Virus record (IMG/VR): IMGVR_UViG_2711768068_000019
DNA length: 33,324 nt
Origin: a virus
Taxonomy: Duplodnaviria; Heunggongvirae; Uroviricota; Caudoviricetes
Direction: 5' to 3' (one strand)
Shown here: one piece after another, positions 1,363 through 33,324 of the stretch
Position numbering within the stretch: position 1 is the stretch's first letter
Layout: each line of letters opens with the position of its first letter
Notes under the pieces: model-generated
Databases searched by the model: none
The model's input: the letters and a program-made list of their open reading frames with translations, nothing else
Told to the model about the DNA's origin: nothing
Made by a program: the position numbers and the translations under genes

Positions 1363-1506
1363 TTAATTTCGATTATTTTTCCCGGATGGAAAATTCTTAG
1401 AAACCGATCACATACAGCTGCATTTATTAAGGTTATCATCCGTTTCGCTGAAAAACATAACCCATAAAATGCTAGCTGTACCAGGAACCACCTCCTTAGC
1501 CTGTGT

Positions 1507-1534
1507 AATCTCCCTTACACGGGCTTATTTTTTA
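1507..1534. repeat. Prophage attachment site core, ogr-proximal junction (attR in P2 convention)
   Basis: aatctcccttacacgggcttatttttta is repeated exactly at 32822..32849; its reverse complement contains the 27-bp P2 att core AAAAAATAAGCCCGTGTAAGGGAGATT as I recall it. Confidence 0.85.
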
Positions 1535-1595: not shown

Positions 1596-1630
1596 ACAAA
1601 AAAGCCCCTCAACTGAGGGGCTTTCTGTTT
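1596..1630 (-). terminator. Rho-independent terminator downstream of ogr (hairpin is bidirectional in form)
   Basis: GC stem gcccctc / gaggggc with a 4-nt loop, flanked by an A-run on one side and a T-run on the other; on the minus strand it reads stem-loop followed by TTTTTT, directly after the ogr stop. Confidence 0.7.
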
Positions 1631-1634
1631 GTAA

Positions 1635-1853
1635 TTACATCCACATAATTTGCTGCCCTGACGGCAACGGGTGCGGTCTTACGGCGTGGACTTCTCCCGG
1701 CTTCACGATGTATCGCTGTACCGACTCATAAGTGATGAACGTGGCGCTGCAATTCACGTTCTGACACTGGTGATAACGCTCTTTTGTCGTGTCAGTGATA
1801 TAGCGACTTGTACGCGCATGTGCGGCATGCTGGCATAAAGGACAATGAAACAT
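1635..1853 (-). CDS. ogr: Late gene transcriptional activator Ogr (C4 zinc-finger protein)
   Basis: 72-aa product MFHCPLCQHAAHARTSRYITDTTKERYHQCQNVNCSATF... with a CxxC...CxxxxC arrangement, recognised as P2 Ogr. The track ORF (to 1916) starts at a TTG; the ATG at 1851-1853 is preceded by a GAGGTG Shine-Dalgarno and gives the canonical length. Confidence 0.9.
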   Translation of the reverse strand: MFHCPLCQHAAHARTSRYITDTTKERYHQCQNVNCSATFITYESVQRYIVKPGEVHAVRPHPLPSGQQIMWM

Positions 1854-1887
1854 CGCGAGCACCTCTTCCGGTTTTGTTGATGGTGCC

Positions 1888-1916
1888 ATTTTAGTTAATT
1901 TATCCTTATAAAACAA
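1888..1916 (-). promoter_or_regulatory. Candidate sigma70 promoter for ogr
   Basis: Minus strand reads TTGTTT, a 17-nt spacer, then TAAAAT in the AT-rich D-ogr intergenic region. Hexamer match only. Confidence 0.3.
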
Positions 1917-1934: not shown

Positions 1935-3098
1935 TCACTCATCATCTTCTGTTTCGTACTCCACATCAGAAAGCCTGACCTCAAGCTCCAAGGACGTCGT
2001 GAAGCCGCTATTATTCAGAAAATGTGTCACCTTAGTGATTGTCCAGTCCTGCTCGTCTATGACGCGCTTAAAGCCTGACACTTTAACCGGTGTTTCCGTG
2101 TAAATATCTGCCCGACCGGTAGCCAGGCTGATGGAGAACTCCGCCACACCCCGTTGCAGTTTATCCCACTTCGCCTGAGCGGCGCGCATGGCCTGTGCTT
2201 TCGTGGCATATACCGTGGTCAGTGCAAAAACGTTGTCAGCCTCACCGGCCATGTATTCACCTTCGCGCGCTTCCGGTACTTTTGGCGCTTTCTTCTGCGT
2301 GACTGGTTTCGCTTTCGGGTGCTCCAGTGCGCGCAGGTGTTTCTCTTTCTTTTTGCGTTTCAGTTTTACCTTCTGCTTTTGCGGCTTCGGGTCTTTGGTG
2401 TGTAACCACTTTGCCGTTACGCCGGTATAGGCTCCACGGTCAGCAATCGCAAAATGATGGCGGTCGCCGTCGCTGCGGGTTATGGTGACCTGCGGGACTT
2501 TTTTACCGCTGGCCGTCACCCCCTGCCCCGCTTTGAGAAACAACAGTTTTCCCATTTTTACCGACACCTCACCGCCGTTGCGTTCAGCAAGGCGGGTCAG
2601 GAATTTTGCATCAGACTCCTGCGACTGGTCGATGTGCGGGATTTTAATTCCGGCCAGTGATGGAACGACACTGGCTTCCAGCCTGTTACGGGAGGCTATC
2701 GCCTCAACAATCGCACCGAGCGTGGTGTCATGCCAGGAGCCTTCACGGCGGGAATTGAGCGTCCCGCGAAAATCTGCACTCCGGGCGCGGATGGTGACCA
2801 CATCCGGTGCGCCCCGGTGTTCAACCTCATCAACGGTAAATTTCCCTTTGCATACCAGGGCAAAACCTTTCCAGCCGATATACACCGTCAGGACAGCGCC
2901 ACGAACCGGCAGCCCGACCTGCCCGTCGGCATCGTTCAGTTCAATATCAAGCTGGTCAGCCTCAAAGCCCCGGTTATCCGTCAGGGTCATGCTCATCAGA
3001 CGGTCGCTGATATTGCCGGTAATATCCCTGCTGTCGAGCATCAGCATGTAATCCGGCGTCAGCGTACTGCCTGCATCAAATGTCAGCGCATCCAGCAT
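1935..3098 (-). CDS. D: Tail protein D (late control gene D product)
   Basis: 387-aa ORF, ATG start, recognised as P2 gpD; start overlaps the U stop. Confidence 0.9.
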   Translation of the reverse strand: MLDALTFDAGSTLTPDYMLMLDSRDITGNISDRLMSMTLTDNRGFEADQLDIELNDADGQVGLPVRGAVLTVYIGWKGFALVCKGKFTVDEVEHRGAPDVVTIRARSADFRGTLNSRREGSWHDTTLGAIVEAIASRNRLEASVVPSLAGIKIPHIDQSQESDAKFLTRLAERNGGEVSVKMGKLLFLKAGQGVTASGKKVPQVTITRSDGDRHHFAIADRGAYTGVTAKWLHTKDPKPQKQKVKLKRKKKEKHLRALEHPKAKPVTQKKAPKVPEAREGEYMAGEADNVFALTTVYATKAQAMRAAQAKWDKLQRGVAEFSISLATGRADIYTETPVKVSGFKRVIDEQDWTITKVTHFLNNSGFTTSLELEVRLSDVEYETEDDE

Positions 3099-3591: not shown

Positions 3592-6039
3592 TTAACCGTC
3601 ATGCATCATGCTGGCACGGGCGCGCGCACGTTTATCCCGCTCGTATTTTTCGAGCGCATCCTGTAACTGGCGGTCAAGCTGTGTCCCCGGCGCAGTACCA
3701 CCCGTCAGGCTGATGTGATATTCGTTTTTACTCTGGTCCACATAAGAGCGGCCAGCCGGTGCCGTAACCGGCTGATAAGCCTGATAACCTGCATAAGAGC
3801 TGGTCGCCGGAATATAACCACCGGTGCCATACGTGGCGGCATGAGTTCTGGCGGCGGTCTGGTCAAGTGTGTCTGACTCTTTGTTGATAACACCGAGTTT
3901 TTCCAGTACCCAGTCAATACCGCTGCGCAGTTTGTTGAACGCATTAAGCGGCAGCATCAGCGCGTCAGCCAGTGCCTGCCCGAACATGACCCCCGTGTCA
4001 CGGCAACGGTTCAGGGTGTCCTGTGTGGCTTTAACCGGGGCAATCAGGTTTTTAAACCACTGCCACGCGGCCTGTAACTTTTCACCCAGCCAGTCAAAAA
4101 CCGGTTTAAGTGGCGTGAACAGTTCCCCCACCGGCGCAAATGCCGCTTTCAGCCCTTCCACCACACCGCCAAAGAATGCGCTGACAGGCTCCCAGTATTT
4201 ACGGATAAGCAACGCCCCGGCGACAATGGCGGCCACCACGGCCACAACCGGCCAGCTAATCGCCCCGATGGCCGTCATAACAGCACTGCCAACCGTCGTG
4301 AAGATTGCCCCCATTGCGCCTGCTGCCGCGATGATGGCATTAATGCCGGTGATAACCGGCCAGGCTACAAGACCAATTGCACCGATGATGCCAATAAGCG
4401 CCAGTGCGCCACCGACAATAAGGCCGATGGTTGACGCCAGTGATTTGTTTTTCTGGATCCAGCCGTCGAGTTTTAACACATACTTTGTGGCCGTCTGCGT
4501 GAGATTACGCAGTGCGCCTTCCTGTTGGTCAAACAGGTCAGTCCCCACCGCCTCATAAGCAGACTGAAACTCCTTAAAGTCACCGCCCAGGTTGTCCTGC
4601 ATGATATTTACCAGCTCGGCGGTCTTCCCGTCTGAGGCTTTAAACGCAGCGGTCAGTTTGTCCAGCTTTCCGGTTGAGGCGGCAGTCATCAGCACGGCGG
4701 CGGCTGAGCTGGCCTCCTCCCCGAAAATAGTTTTCATGTATTCAGCCTGCTGGGCAGTACCGAGCCGGTTTTTCTCAAAACTGGCCTGCATTTCTTTCAG
4801 AATGGTAAATATTGGCCGGGTGTTTCCCTTGCTGTCTGAGGTTTTCACTCCAAGCTCTTTGAGTGCATCCCATGCTTTTCCCGTCGGTGCCTGCAGGCGG
4901 CTTAACACGGCACGGCTTCCCGTCCCCGCCATTGAGCCTGTGATTTTTGCATCATGCAGCGCCCCGACCATTGCGGCGGTTTCTTCAATGCTGACACCGG
5001 CATTTTTTGCCACAGGTGCGGCATAGGTCAGCGCATCGCTCATACCGTCAAAATCGGCGGCGGTTTTGTTCATCGTCATGGAGAGAACATCCCCGATATG
5101 AGCGACCTTATCGTTTGAAAGCTGAAAGGCGGATTTCATCCCCATCAGCAGGGCGGCGTTTTCTTCCATCGTGCGACGGTTCGCCAGCGCCATATTCAGC
5201 GTGACCGGCGTTGCCGCCTGAATGGCATCAACATCCCCACCGGCTTTCGCAATAATAATCTGCGCACCGGCTGCATCATCTGCCGAGGCGGCGGTATTGT
5301 CGCCAAGCTGACGCGCCTGTTTGCGGAGCGCGGCCATTTCGGCGGAGTCTTTTGCCACACCTAGCACGGCCTGCAATTCTGAGTTTTTCTGCGCAAACTC
5401 ATAACCGGGCATCAGCAGCTTAACACCGGCCATCGTTCCCGCCGCCGCAATCCCCACACCGGCAGCGCCCACTGAGGCCATATTTCCGGCCAGCTCCTTT
5501 CCGGCCTGATAACGCTGTTTTACTGCGTTAAGTTTTGCCTGTTGCGCACTGACACGCGCCAGCGCATCACGCTGACGGTTAAGCTGTGTGGTGGTTTCAC
5601 TGATACGGTTTTTCAGCCCTCGTTCATCATGCGCCAGATTACGGGTATTAATTCCCACAGCGGCCAGTTCCCGCTGCTGGCGCTTAACGGAATCCGTCAG
5701 ACGGTTATATTTCGCCTGTAAGTCCTCCGCCGCACGCTTTGCGGATTCCAGCACTTTCGCCTGAGCACGGGTCGGACGTTCGGTGTTTTTAAACTGTGTG
5801 GCAAGGGCTTCGGCTTCCTGCCGAGCCTTTTCAAGTGCATGACCAGTCACGGCGAGCTGCGCACTGGTCTTGCGAAATCCCTCAATACGGGACGCCTGAC
5901 CGTTCAGCTCGCGCAGTGATTTTTGTGTTTCCCGGATATCCCCCGACAGCGACTTGCTCGCTGTACGGATGGATTTAAACGGGCGGGATGCCTGGTCAAC
6001 AGCCCTGAGCAATACCTGTAATTTTACATTGTTACTCAT
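3592..6039 (-). CDS. T: Tail tape measure protein T
   Basis: 815-aa ORF with a coiled-coil N-terminal half and a Gly/Ala-rich hydrophobic central segment, typical of tape measure proteins; position and length match P2 gpT. Confidence 0.9.
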   Translation of the reverse strand: MSNNVKLQVLLRAVDQASRPFKSIRTASKSLSGDIRETQKSLRELNGQASRIEGFRKTSAQLAVTGHALEKARQEAEALATQFKNTERPTRAQAKVLESAKRAAEDLQAKYNRLTDSVKRQQRELAAVGINTRNLAHDERGLKNRISETTTQLNRQRDALARVSAQQAKLNAVKQRYQAGKELAGNMASVGAAGVGIAAAGTMAGVKLLMPGYEFAQKNSELQAVLGVAKDSAEMAALRKQARQLGDNTAASADDAAGAQIIIAKAGGDVDAIQAATPVTLNMALANRRTMEENAALLMGMKSAFQLSNDKVAHIGDVLSMTMNKTAADFDGMSDALTYAAPVAKNAGVSIEETAAMVGALHDAKITGSMAGTGSRAVLSRLQAPTGKAWDALKELGVKTSDSKGNTRPIFTILKEMQASFEKNRLGTAQQAEYMKTIFGEEASSAAAVLMTAASTGKLDKLTAAFKASDGKTAELVNIMQDNLGGDFKEFQSAYEAVGTDLFDQQEGALRNLTQTATKYVLKLDGWIQKNKSLASTIGLIVGGALALIGIIGAIGLVAWPVITGINAIIAAAGAMGAIFTTVGSAVMTAIGAISWPVVAVVAAIVAGALLIRKYWEPVSAFFGGVVEGLKAAFAPVGELFTPLKPVFDWLGEKLQAAWQWFKNLIAPVKATQDTLNRCRDTGVMFGQALADALMLPLNAFNKLRSGIDWVLEKLGVINKESDTLDQTAARTHAATYGTGGYIPATSSYAGYQAYQPVTAPAGRSYVDQSKNEYHISLTGGTAPGTQLDRQLQDALEKYERDKRARARASMMHDG

Positions 6040-24168: not shown

Positions 24169-24708
24169 TCAATCATCATGATGAGAGAACCTAGCATTTA
24201 CTATTCTTGAGTGAAGATTGTTTGCAAATGATAAGTTGCTTAAAATAACACTAAACACACACTTTATTTGTAACCAGCACATAAAATAAACAAAGGTGAT
24301 TCCAATCATTCTAATAAGATCAGAATACACCACTGAACTCGATAGCACAGAGCCTATTGATTTAAACAGATAAACAAACAAAATCGAAAGCATTACTACT
24401 GCTGAAGTAATTACAACGTAAATTAGCTTTTCAATTCGAGGTGCATCTTTCGTATTCTTTATGTAATCAACATCATCATTGACAATGCTTGCAATTGCAT
24501 TCGGATATAAAAAACCAATCCATAATCCAACTATGGTAAAAATTGCAGCAGATATGTTTTGCAAAACACCCAGTATATCTTTTATATCACTATAGTTAAC
24601 ATAAGCTTTCAGCCAATAGGAGGCCACAGCAATTAGAAATAGAATTAACAAATTCCATTTCCATTGTATTATCAATGCCTTTAAATCCTTACTTGTTTGA
24701 GGTGACAT
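24169..24708 (-). CDS. Hypothetical small integral membrane protein (4 predicted transmembrane helices), second gene of an AT-rich cargo operon
   Basis: 179-aa ORF. Its ATG directly follows the upstream TAA (TAAATG) and is preceded by GGAGG within the upstream gene's 3' end. Four hydrophobic stretches of about 17-23 residues. About 30% GC by eye. Confidence 0.7.
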   Translation of the reverse strand: MSPQTSKDLKALIIQWKWNLLILFLIAVASYWLKAYVNYSDIKDILGVLQNISAAIFTIVGLWIGFLYPNAIASIVNDDVDYIKNTKDAPRIEKLIYVVITSAVVMLSILFVYLFKSIGSVLSSSVVYSDLIRMIGITFVYFMCWLQIKCVFSVILSNLSFANNLHSRIVNARFSHHDD

Positions 24709-25836
24709 TTATGCCTCCGCCGTTTTTAAAGATTTTTCTTCCACCTCTTCATTATAAAGGATTGTTTGGAGTAAATCATCACGAACAGCCTTTATTTCAT
24801 GAAGGAGTTTTTCTGGAGAGAAATGCTCATCTCCGGTAGAATCGCTGACAATTAATGCAGTTCTCGCCATATATTTTTTTAACCATAATGGGCGAGATGA
24901 ATCTTTAAGAACAAAGCCAACATCAACCCAGTCAACATCATCTACATTTCTATCCAATAGTTGTTTTATCTCCTCTTCCGAAGGAGCACCATCTACTCGA
25001 ACCTCAATTTTTTTAGGTTTTGTAAACTTGGTTTGTTCTGTTCCCAAGAAATCCGATAGTACATTACTCACCAGACGTAATAACGGTTGCCGGGTATCCT
25101 CAACTTTTGCGACCGTAGTATCACGAATAATTGTCTGAACAATTTTATCTCGTACATCAAGAATATTCGTCCCTGGTTTATTAACCTTCGTCACTTCAGC
25201 CTTAAATTTAAAAACGCAATTACACTTGCGTCCATTTTCATCTACATGCTTGAAAATTGTTTTAGAAATAAGAATGTCATCTTCCGAACATGAAGAACGA
25301 GCTCTAGTAAATGAGGTAGTATCCTTTTCCCTACCAAAATCACCGTGATTTACTACAAAATTAAAAATATAATTGCTTAACCTCGGTGTATCTGCACCTG
25401 AATGAGGAAATATAATGGATGCAATCTTGTTATATTCAGGAATTATCCAATAATAACATGGCTCAACCCAAATATAGTCTTTTCCATTCGTTTCTGTCTT
25501 TACTGTATCATTTTCTGTAGCACCAACAGGTGCGTTTTTTTTAACAGCGTGCAAACGTCCCTTCGCGGAACCTAATGCGCGATACATTACCATCACCCGA
25601 TCTTTTGTATCGGGATCGACAGCCACTCCTCGTGAGTAAGTTCTGGCTCTTAGCGGATGAGTTCCCGTATCCCACGGAATTGACTCCTCAACGCTTTTGT
25701 CATCAAGCCAAGCCTGCAACGCGTCAAAGATCTCATCAAGTGTTCCGAATTTATGCTCTAATTCTTCTGCGTTTTTCTTCAGTCTGTAAAAACCACAAGC
25801 CTTGATATCAAAGAACGTAACGATTCCAGTTTCCAT
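24709..25836 (-). CDS. Hypothetical protein (375 aa), first gene of an AT-rich cargo operon at the P2 tin/old position
   Basis: ORF with the ATG at 25834-25836 (METGIVTFFDIKACGFYRLKK...); the track ORF begins 21 codons upstream at a TTG. No transmembrane segment and no Walker A motif. Low GC. No family recognised. Confidence 0.7.
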   Translation of the reverse strand: METGIVTFFDIKACGFYRLKKNAEELEHKFGTLDEIFDALQAWLDDKSVEESIPWDTGTHPLRARTYSRGVAVDPDTKDRVMVMYRALGSAKGRLHAVKKNAPVGATENDTVKTETNGKDYIWVEPCYYWIIPEYNKIASIIFPHSGADTPRLSNYIFNFVVNHGDFGREKDTTSFTRARSSCSEDDILISKTIFKHVDENGRKCNCVFKFKAEVTKVNKPGTNILDVRDKIVQTIIRDTTVAKVEDTRQPLLRLVSNVLSDFLGTEQTKFTKPKKIEVRVDGAPSEEEIKQLLDRNVDDVDWVDVGFVLKDSSRPLWLKKYMARTALIVSDSTGDEHFSPEKLLHEIKAVRDDLLQTILYNEEVEEKSLKTAEA

Positions 25837-25993
25837 CACTTTCCCTACGAAGCGGTAAAAAATCCCCAGAACAATAAGGGATCTATGCAAAAGGTTCAAT
25901 GCTCAAGATTATCACCTAGTATGCTAACGCCTCCGCAGATGAGTTGTTCACCCCGCCAACCCTGAAAACAAGTTTCACGACTGGCGGCGCTCT

Positions 25994-31310: not shown

Positions 31311-31320
31311 ACCATGTCAA
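31292..31320 (-). promoter_or_regulatory. Candidate early promoter Pe (drives cox-B-A)
   Basis: Minus strand reads TTGACA (overlapping the C start codon), a 17-nt spacer, then TAGTAT. Confidence 0.5.
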
Positions 31321-31613
31321 ACACGATAAGCGAGAAGATAGTCTTAATGCGAAAATCAGAGTATTTGAGCAGACAACAACTTGCTGATTTAACAGGGGTT
31401 CCGTATGGCACGCTGAGTTACTATGAAAGTGGTCGTTCAACACCTCCAACAGATGTCATGATGAACATCCTGCAGACCCCACAATTCACCAAATACACTT
31501 TATGGTTCATGACCAATCAGATCGCTCCTGAGTCCGGGCAAATTGCGCCCGCTCTCGCACACTTTGGGCAAAACGAAACAACGTCGCCCCACTCCGGTCA
31601 AAAGACTGGTTAA
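31314..31613 (+). CDS. C: Immunity repressor C
   Basis: 99-aa ORF, ATG start (MSNTISEKIVLMRKSEYLSRQQLADLTGVPYGTLSYYESG...), with a helix-turn-helix region; length and position match P2 C. Confidence 0.9.
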   Translation: MSNTISEKIVLMRKSEYLSRQQLADLTGVPYGTLSYYESGRSTPPTDVMMNILQTPQFTKYTLWFMTNQIAPESGQIAPALAHFGQNETTSPHSGQKTG

Positions 31614-31728: not shown

Positions 31729-32742
31729 ATGGCAATCAAAAAACTCGATGATGGTCGATATGAAGTGGACATCCGCCCTACTGGACGTAATGGAAAACGC
31801 ATCCGTAGGAAGTTTGATAAGAAAAGCGAAGCTGTCGCTTTCGAGAAATACACGTTGTACAACCACCACAATAAAGAATGGCTATCAAAACCAACAGACA
31901 AGCGACGTCTGTCGGAGCTGACACAGATCTGGTGGGATTTAAAGGGTAAACACGAAGAGCATGGGAAATCTAATCTTGGAAAAATTGAAATCTTCACAAA
32001 AATAACGAATGACCCATGCGCATTTCAAATTACGAAATCGCTTATCAGCCAGTACTGCGCCACCCGAAGAAGTCAGGGTATTAAACCTTCGAGTATCAAT
32101 CGTGATTTAACATGTATTAGCGGCATGTTTACAGCCCTGATTGAAGCGGAGTTATTCTTTGGTGAGCACCCTATCAGAGGGACAAAAAGGCTTAAGGAGG
32201 AAAAACCAGACACAGGCTATCTCACGCAGGAAGAAATTGCCTTACTGCTTGCTGCTCTTGACGGCGACAACAAAAAGATTGCGATTCTTTGCCTGAGTAC
32301 TGGAGCACGTTGGGGAGAAGCAGCTCGTTTGAAAGCAGAAAATATCATCCATAACCGCGTCACGTTTGTTAAAACGAAAACAAACAAACCACGCACCGTC
32401 CCGATCTCAGAGGCTGTTGCCAAAATGATCGCGGATAACAAACGAGGTTTTTTATTCCCTGATGCTGATTACCCTCGCTTCAGACGAACAATGAAAGCAA
32501 TAAAACCGGATTTGCCAATGGGGCAAGCTACACATGCACTAAGGCACAGCTTTGCCACTCATTTCATGATTAATGGAGGAAGTATTATCACGCTACAACG
32601 GATACTAGGTCACACGCGGATTGAGCAAACTATGGTTTACGCTCATTTTGCGCCAGAGTACCTTCAGGACGCCATTTCTCTTAATCCGCTAAGAGGTGGT
32701 ACTGAGGTCGAGAGTGTCCACACAGTGTCCACAGTAGAGTAA
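31729..32742 (+). CDS. int: Tyrosine integrase
   Basis: 337-aa ORF preceded by GGAGG; the C-terminal region has the conserved R...HxxR...Y catalytic residues (ARWGEAARL, HALRHSFAT, VYAHF). Adjacent to the att core. Confidence 0.9.
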   Translation: MAIKKLDDGRYEVDIRPTGRNGKRIRRKFDKKSEAVAFEKYTLYNHHNKEWLSKPTDKRRLSELTQIWWDLKGKHEEHGKSNLGKIEIFTKITNDPCAFQITKSLISQYCATRRSQGIKPSSINRDLTCISGMFTALIEAELFFGEHPIRGTKRLKEEKPDTGYLTQEEIALLLAALDGDNKKIAILCLSTGARWGEAARLKAENIIHNRVTFVKTKTNKPRTVPISEAVAKMIADNKRGFLFPDADYPRFRRTMKAIKPDLPMGQATHALRHSFATHFMINGGSIITLQRILGHTRIEQTMVYAHFAPEYLQDAISLNPLRGGTEVESVHTVSTVE

Positions 32743-32821
32743 CGTTTAAGGGCTTTCAGTGGTAATTTATGCCGCTCAAACCCGCATTGTACCGTTGAAA
32801 GCCCCTACTGTTGACACCCTA

Positions 32822-32849
32822 AATCTCCCTTACACGGGCTTATTTTTTA
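32822..32849. repeat. Prophage attachment site core, int-proximal junction (attL in P2 convention)
   Basis: Exact 28-bp copy of the repeat at 1507..1534, about 80 nt downstream of the int stop. Confidence 0.85.
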
Positions 32850-33006
32850 TGCATAAGCCCTATCCCTGGTCACCGTCTTCCATTGACCACATCGATAGAA
32901 TCTCCCTTCATAGCACGATGCCTTTCACGTAACGGCATCGTGCTCGCACAGGTTCCGGCTAAGCACAACCAGAACGCGCATGTTTGATGCTTACCAAAAA
33001 ATATTC

Positions 33007-33324
33007 TCACTCTCCACATTTGAATGTCAGACGAGCGACGCCATGTAATCCTGCACCTTCTGTCTTCAGGTCAACTATCTGCATTTTTTTGCCCTGAGTA
33101 ACACAGAAATGGGCTGCATCATTTTTTACTATATTTTCTGCACCAGATATTCTGCCCCTGGCTAAAGAAGCTTCGGCTTCGGTGTAGTATTGGTTATCGA
33201 GTTTACGCTGAATATTACTTTTATATGCAAGACCAAATTTACCGATACTTGTCTCATCATTATGCACAGCACAACCAGACACAATAAAAATACTAATTAA
33301 TGATATAGCAGCTATCTTTTTCAT
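33007..33324 (-). CDS. yegR: Lipoprotein YegR (host chromosomal gene)
   Basis: 105-aa ORF whose ATG is the last three bases of the window. Signal peptide with a lipobox (IFIVSG-C); I recognise the sequence as E. coli YegR, the neighbour of yegQ. Confidence 0.8.
   Translation of the reverse strand: MKKIAAISLISIFIVSGCAVHNDETSIGKFGLAYKSNIQRKLDNQYYTEAEASLARGRISGAENIVKNDAAHFCVTQGKKMQIVDLKTEGAGLHGVARLTFKCGE

Follow-up and report, generated by a model that had tools for sequence, protein, structure and literature searches.

A degraded P2-type integrase arm site next to the cyaR attachment core of Escherichia coli and its probable origin in an ancient prophage

The P2-like prophage at cyaR and the arm-like copy beside it

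The DNA analysed here, a stretch of 33 324 nucleotides from IMG/VR record IMGVR_UViG_2711768068_000019 that we call the window, carries in order yegQ, the small RNA gene cyaR, a 28-bp core, a P2-like prophage running from ogr to int, a second copy of the core, an arm-like copy and yegR. The prophage between the two core copies is 31.3 kb long. The features are listed below.

1–1362: yegQ
1445–1530, plus strand: sRNA gene cyaR (RyeE), full length (Rfam RF00112, 100.7 bits, E = 3e-19)
1507–1534: att core of the ogr-proximal junction (attR in the P2 convention), AATCTCCCTTACACGGGCTTATTTTTTA, identical to 32822–32849 and matching the annotated P2 attP core
1532–1565: IHF site in the P arm of the resident prophage (protein_bind features of AF063097 mapped; 98.5% identity over 134 nt)
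1569–1596: arm-type Int-binding site of the P arm, with two G(T/A)CCAC repeats at 1575 and 1586, 11 nt apart (P2 annotation and motif scan)
1601–1624, minus strand: ogr/F-operon terminator (P2 annotation)
1635–1853 or 1635–1916, minus strand: ogr (Pfam Ogr_Delta, E = 2e-21; P2 annotation)
1935–3098, minus strand: D (gpD)
31314–31613, plus strand: repressor C
31729–32742, plus strand: int, tyrosine integrase (Pfam Int_N and Phage_integrase)
32708–32734: arm-type Int site of the P′ arm, repeats at 32716 and 32727 (mapped P2 annotation and motif scan)
32732–32805: Cox-binding region of the P′ arm (mapped P2 annotation)
32822–32849: att core of the int-proximal junction (attL in the P2 convention), identical to 1507–1534
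32850–32898: arm-like copy, very probably a fossil P arm; 32866–32895 are homologous to the P-arm Int site, and most of the IHF box has gone
32899–32908: partial core copy AATCTCCCTT, the first 10 nt of the core, equivalent to the CyaR terminator loop
32912–32944: perfect 11-bp hairpin, AGCACGATGCC and GGCATCGTGCT, with an 11-nt loop and no T-run
33007–33324, minus strand: yegR, a 105-aa lipoprotein-like accessory gene (RefSeq annotation of identical DNA; 38.7% GC)

The 28-bp att core consists of the terminator hairpin and U-tract of CyaR; ryeE/cyaR is a known target of phages (PMC3603311). Positions 1507–1640 are 98.5% identical to phage P2, whose core is annotated in AF063097 as 27 bp and maps to 1507–1533. 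Because int lies at the right end of the prophage and ogr and D at the left, the phage sequence that follows the left-hand core is the ogr-proximal P arm. Two minus-strand ORFs (396 and 179 aa; 24169–25899) in the variable region that separates the portal gene from gene A match A and B of the PADLOC candidate defence system PDC-M18 (E = 4e-38 and 3e-16, respectively); neither has a Pfam match.

The original prediction was that similarity continues beyond the 28-bp core to the right of both cores, which at the int-proximal junction is the yegR side. Local alignment of 1535–1660 with 32850–32975 bore this out: 1567–1596 and 32866–32895 are identical in 27 of 31 columns, with two 1-nt indels (CTGGTCA-CGTCCACACATTGACCACATCGA aligned with CTGGTCACCGTCTTC-CATTGACCACATCGA). 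The alignment score of 38 lies beyond all of 2000 shuffles (mean 14.7, maximum 30), ruling out chance similarity. An independent repeat search found the same pair (family D6), and 1567–1596 is the best match to 32850–32910 elsewhere in the window, on either strand.

Since the P2 annotation of the Int site maps to 1569–1596, the matching sequence is the arm-type Int-binding site of the P arm. The copy lies on the correct side of the core, in the correct orientation and on the same strand as in attR, and its similarity to the phage arm stops where the ogr terminator would start. The conserved N-terminal domain of Int recognizes the repeat of P2-type arms, for which the consensus is tgTGGaCa (PMC3448106). 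A motif scan for G(T/A)CCAC found pairs 11 nt apart in both phage arms (1575/1586 and 32716/32727) and a single motif in the right-hand copy. Of the tandem g(t/a)ccaca motifs that had been attributed to the extra similarity, one is intact in the copy (GACCAC at 32885) and the first is degraded (GTCCACA to CGTCTTC), so that the two direct tgTGGaCa repeats, 11 nt apart, required of a functional P2-type arm site are lacking. An IHF site at phage-like spacing is also absent, the spacer between the right-hand core and the block being 16 nt long, as compared with 32 nt on the left, and unlike the IHF box. The surviving repeat lies 36 nt from the core, as compared with 52 nt for its homologue in the phage arm.

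Beyond the arm-like copy, the exact 10-nt run of core sequence at 32899–32908 was reached in 15 of 5000 shuffles, and some alleles read AATCCTCCTT at this position. The partial core may mark a nested, older junction; a simple history of integration followed by deletion does not predict such a copy. The hairpin at 32912–32944 was considered as an intrinsic terminator, but this is not supported, since it has no T-run and was not called as a terminator. It lies ∼65–95 nt downstream of the yegR stop codon, and alleles differ in the loop and at one position of the stem.

Occurrence of the copy in E. coli and its relation to the K-12 remnant

A composite empty site was built from the 300 nt ending at the left core and the 300 nt starting past the right core. 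Of 5426 complete E. coli genomes, 4563 contain this site as one contiguous stretch without a full prophage, some of them at 100% identity. The 111 nt to the right of the right core occur once each in 5361 of the 5426 genomes (98.8%), and the arm-like copy is present at empty sites from different lineages (L004, L005 and L006; also L289 and L290). The presence of the copy in almost every E. coli, at occupied and empty sites alike, indicates an old integration scar that lies outside today's crossover site. As the original prediction had proposed, prophage-free sites and K-12 were compared with both junctions, and the extended similarity proved to be present in attB.

These data bear on one of the explanations offered at the outset, that crossover, or identity, in fact extends past the 28-bp core to include the arm-like block. 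The core repeat does extend weakly for ∼7 nt (35 nt at 91%). Nevertheless, the segments between core and block, 32 nt on the left and 16 nt on the right, are not significantly alike, the P2 core is annotated as 27 bp, and the block was already in attB before integration. We give a longer crossover region almost no probability.

The int-side junction of a P2-type prophage was found in 763 of the 5426 genomes. All 763 have the full core, and no secondary-site junctions with which to map the crossover point were gained from them; the single junction inspected was again at the yegR site. Among the int-side junctions from IMG/VR (L127–L189), three have AAACGCCCTTACACGGG instead of AATCTCCCTTACACGGG as the left part of the core. 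Relatives of the phage with variant cores thus use the cyaR site, with strand exchange to the right of approximately core position 5.

A second IMG/VR scan revealed a rarer allele in which the spacer between core and block is 28 nt long (e.g. ATGCATAAGCTGTAAATACGGATTGATCCCTGG), as compared with 16 nt in the window and 32 nt in P2. The flanks of this allele are 97.5–99% identical to the window, indicating that its hosts are E. coli, and it occurs in ∼150 of the 5426 E. coli genomes, including the empty sites of PCN033 and C1. In the long allele the degraded arm is close to collinear with the phage arm: GGATTGATCCC(T/A)GG aligns with phage GGATTTATTTCTGG, and alignment over the whole arm gave 43 identical columns of 67 and a score of 33.5 (shuffle maximum 21). 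When the spacer alone was compared with the phage spacer, p was 0.64 for the short allele, and 0.05 and 0.11 for long alleles. The spacer alone is thus not significantly like that of the phage, and collinear homology of the E. coli copy across the IHF box is only suggestive.

Barreiro and Haggard-Ljungquist are said to have described, in 1992, a cryptic P2 remnant (ogrK and a gpD fragment) at the preferred P2 site locI of K-12. The original prediction had placed K-12 remnants, ogrK and yegZ, at the yegQ–yegR site, and the K-12 sequence agrees, the gpD fragment being yegZ. In MG1655 the order is cyaR, core, an intact P2-type P arm, ogrK, the gpD (D′) fragment, a partial core TACACGGGCTTATTTTTTT and the arm-like copy. 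The block might then be regarded as part of this remnant, with which it shares locus and phage family. However, K-12 has the remnant's own intact P arm in addition to the degraded copy past the partial core, which makes the copy independent of, and older than, the remnant; moreover, most strains have the copy without ogrK, and the right flank of the window contains neither ogr nor the gpD fragment. An origin of the block in a K-12-type remnant is scarcely credible.

The remnant and the copy nevertheless have in common that each is left over from the ogr side (attR end) of a P2-family prophage at the cyaR core. With its intact P arm, ogr and D fragment, the K-12 remnant measures ∼630 bp; it separates cyaR from the copy and is restricted to K-12-like strains. 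The copy, in contrast, is ∼50 bp long, far more degraded and nearly universal. The same kind of segment appears to have entered the databases as a phage: GenBank entry AY639599, ‘Phage TP’, consists of yegQ (annotated as a protease), the cyaR core, a P arm, ogr, ∼300 bp, the degraded arm and the start of yegR. It is a chromosomal segment with a K-12-like remnant and not a piece of a phage genome.

Other variation was seen at the site. In a lysogen, E. coli 1218KP, an IS3-family element directly follows the degraded arm, before yegR. In E. coli CU42ET-1, the interval from the yegR stop codon to the hairpin region contains, immediately downstream of the gene, an additional AT-rich segment of ∼170 bp, which occurs in a subset of strains (matches H16, H18–H20, H22 and H27 of the composite-site search).

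The cyaR–yegS region in other Enterobacterales

Species-representative genomes were scanned with a cyaR pattern, which gave at least 120 loci; Escherichia is represented among those listed by Escherichia sp. E1V33 and one E. coli. In 97 of the 120 loci listed, cyaR has yegS downstream of it in the same orientation, and in ∼50 Enterobacterales loci among the 120 the start of yegS is ∼125–200 nt from cyaR. In ∼50 Enterobacterales species among the loci listed, cyaR is followed directly by yegS, without the arm block. E1V33 (L066) has this arrangement: yegQ, with 93% nucleotide identity to that of the window, is followed by cyaR and yegS, with neither yegR nor an arm copy. Since this is the one non-coli Escherichia genome among the loci listed, the age of the event that distinguishes E. 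coli is poorly bounded.

Homology between E. coli and the unoccupied E1V33 site resumes at CGACTTTCATCCTGTTCTGAC, in the upstream region of yegS. Immediately before this sequence stands a degenerate core, AATCCTCCATACTTGAACTGACTTTTT, with 18 of 27 positions identical to the core (p ∼0.02 for such a match anywhere in 823 bp). It lies at 4567–4593 of locus L190 (E. coli AMSHJX01), ∼300 bp past the right end of the window, and is in exact 33-nt register with the E1V33 cyaR terminator. The ∼770 bp from the live core to the decayed core comprise the degraded arm, the partial core, the hairpin, yegR and AT-rich DNA; this insert has 40% GC, as compared with 50–54% in yegQ and yegS. Inspection by eye of the sequence beside the distal degenerate core revealed no convincing match to a P′-arm stub.

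The cyaR terminator also differs between the two. Its 3′ half reads ACACGGGC in E. coli, which is the P2-core type, and ACGCAGGC in E1V33; the E. coli version (window 1517–1524) forms a U–G wobble with the left stem GCCTGTGT. At a live junction from IMG/VR, L218, a host-type left stem, GCCTGCGT, is joined to phage-type ACACGGGC. This hybrid terminator indicates that P2 integration replaces the 3′ half of the sRNA's terminator.

yegR lies inside the ∼770-bp insert together with the degraded arm and is absent from E1V33. Its position in an insert bounded by a degenerate core makes it look like cargo of an ancient insertion at cyaR. No phage homologue of YegR was found by tblastn, and hardly any of its protein homologues come from outside E. 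coli and Shigella. YegR-like proteins of 47–83% identity in other taxa (nine loci) have unrelated contexts, with neighbours such as nitroreductase and ivy, bestrophin-like and MerR genes, or IS transposases in Enterobacter sp. BIDMC 29, and DNA homology to these divergent copies is limited to the coding sequence. The lack of a phage homologue, together with divergent copies in unrelated chromosomal or IS-flanked contexts, gives no support to a phage origin of yegR, which may have come with the ancient phage or with a separate element. The varied contexts of the YegR-like proteins suggest a mobile small lipoprotein gene. A search for syntenic loci in other Escherichia by means of divergent YegR gave only noisy E. 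coli-like assemblies (L194 and L204) or non-syntenic loci.

The similarity between phage arm and E. coli copy could in principle have arisen in either direction. In the reverse case, the E. coli copy would be the source: imprecise excision would have carried off host DNA that lies downstream of cyaR, and this would have become the P arm of the phage. At both junctions the similarity is found on the side downstream of cyaR, just as if attP had been copied from the host. A MAFFT alignment showed that P2, the K-12 remnant, Wphi, fiAA91-ss, Yersinia phage YpM46 and Enterobacter phage ENT4 have a conserved IHF box, TGAAATAAAAGGATTTATTTC, and two conserved Int repeats in common with cyaR-integrated elements of Citrobacter, Enterobacter and Buttiauxella. 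P2, Wphi, fiAA91-ss, YpM46 and ENT4 share this P arm but have unrelated cores. The conservation of the arm despite unrelated cores indicates that it is a property of the phage. The E. coli copy aligns along the whole arm, with a 16-nt gap in the IHF box. Transfer from host to phage is at odds with the occurrence of the same arm in P2-like phages that have unrelated cores and integration sites, with the presence of its repeat motif in the P′ arm as well, with the absence of the block from unoccupied cyaR–yegS sites in E1V33 and ∼50 other species among the loci listed, and with the fact that the degraded copy is the one in the host. We regard it as very improbable.

We also looked for phages that carry the scar-type spacer as part of a genuine P arm. 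None was found in the phage collection, where the two matching records both have host flank, or in IMG/VR, where all 63 matches are P′–core–scar followed by host flank near contig ends. A phage with the exact arm variant of the scar was likewise not found among phage records and IMG/VR.

Remnants from the P-arm side next to cyaR recur in Enterobacteriaceae. In Citrobacter youngae (L117), Citrobacter sp. Awk 4 (L041) and a Buttiauxella MAG (L090), a P2-type P arm follows the cyaR core, with few or no phage genes before yegS: the first has a cargo ORF and fragments of ogr and gpD, the other two only unrelated ORFs. The arms of these three are intact (0–3 mismatches in 22 nt) and their inserts measure 1.9–2.8 kb or more, indicating that they are younger than the E. 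coli copy and lineage-specific.

Origin of the copy and its consequences

The arm-like block shares homology with the P-arm Int site, it is present in E. coli irrespective of whether the site is occupied, it is absent from the unoccupied sites of relatives, and a degenerate core lies distal to it. We therefore consider it very probable that the block is the fixed, fossil attR of an ancient P2-like prophage that occupied cyaR in an ancestor of E. coli. The suggestion that the site was once occupied and retains the scar of an older P2-like element is upheld by these observations, while the suggestion of a longer crossover region has to be given up, because the similarity precedes integration. 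The block resembles the P2 attP P arm (AF063097) in its side, its orientation, the 27 of 31 identical columns, one intact repeat, and the flanking CTGGTCAC and ATCGA. It differs in having lost one repeat and most of the IHF box and in lying 16 nt closer to the core; furthermore, it is followed by a partial core and yegR rather than by the ogr terminator, and it is chromosomal in nearly all E. coli.

We infer the following order of events. A P2-family phage would have integrated into the cyaR terminator of the E. coli ancestor and supplied the 3′ half of that terminator. The prophage would then have been lost except for a stub of its P arm next to the core; selection on cyaR termination would favour keeping the stub. 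The distal core of the ancient prophage would have decayed, and the stub would have lost one Int repeat and subsequently, in most lineages, 12 more nucleotides of the IHF region. Stub, yegR and AT-rich DNA would have become fixed as the normal sequence between cyaR and yegS. The K-12 remnant was inserted later, when the copy was already in place at the site. Present-day P2-like phages would recombine solely within the 27–28-bp core, and with recombination confined to the live core the int end of each new prophage abuts the old stub.

The fossil arm most likely has no present role. The alternative is that it acts as a functional accessory site, the surviving repeat in attB still being bound by the N-terminal domain of P2 Int and thereby helping to account for the strong site preference or altering excision from the int-proximal junction. 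The surviving repeat (TGTGGTCA on the other strand) fits the consensus, and P2-type prophages occupy this site in the 763 genomes noted above. In 16 alleles, a small sample consisting entirely of lysogens, the 26-nt block over the repeat, GTCTTCCATTGACCACATCGATAGAA, is invariant while flanking positions vary, and this invariance could hint at constraint. On the other hand, neither the second repeat nor the IHF box survives, the remaining repeat stands at a different distance from the core than in the phage (36 and 52 nt, respectively), this distance is itself polymorphic, with spacers of 16 or 28 nt, and related phages integrate at cyaR in species without the block. An accessory function is unlikely. 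If it is true that Int binds the stub, the preferred P2 site of E. coli would be an attB partly equipped with an arm, which would bear on site preference, and the int-proximal junction of a lysogen would be a truncated attP (P′–core–P stub), so that integration preference, the efficiency of excision or the capacity for tandem lysogeny would be changed.

The interpretation of the block as a fossil attR places it in ordinary biology: it is of the same kind as the ogrK remnant of K-12 and the scars at RNA-gene hot spots. With the serial scars at tRNA, tmRNA and sRNA genes it shares the use of an RNA-gene 3′ end as the core, a decaying distal core and AT-rich accessory DNA. Unlike in those cases, the leftover here is a recognizable recombinase arm-binding site that abuts a live core, and the int-proximal junction of each new lysogen consequently resembles a truncated attP. 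Prophage boundary tools that rely on repeats could for this reason set the int-side boundary of P2-like prophages at this site too far out.

The apparent breach of the rule that integration duplicates only the core is thus explained without any new mechanism. On the fossil reading, the 3′ half of the cyaR terminator, the arm stub and the orphan yegR all lie in or beside an ancient insert, and the classical P2 attachment site of E. coli would itself be the leftover attR of an older phage of the P2 family.
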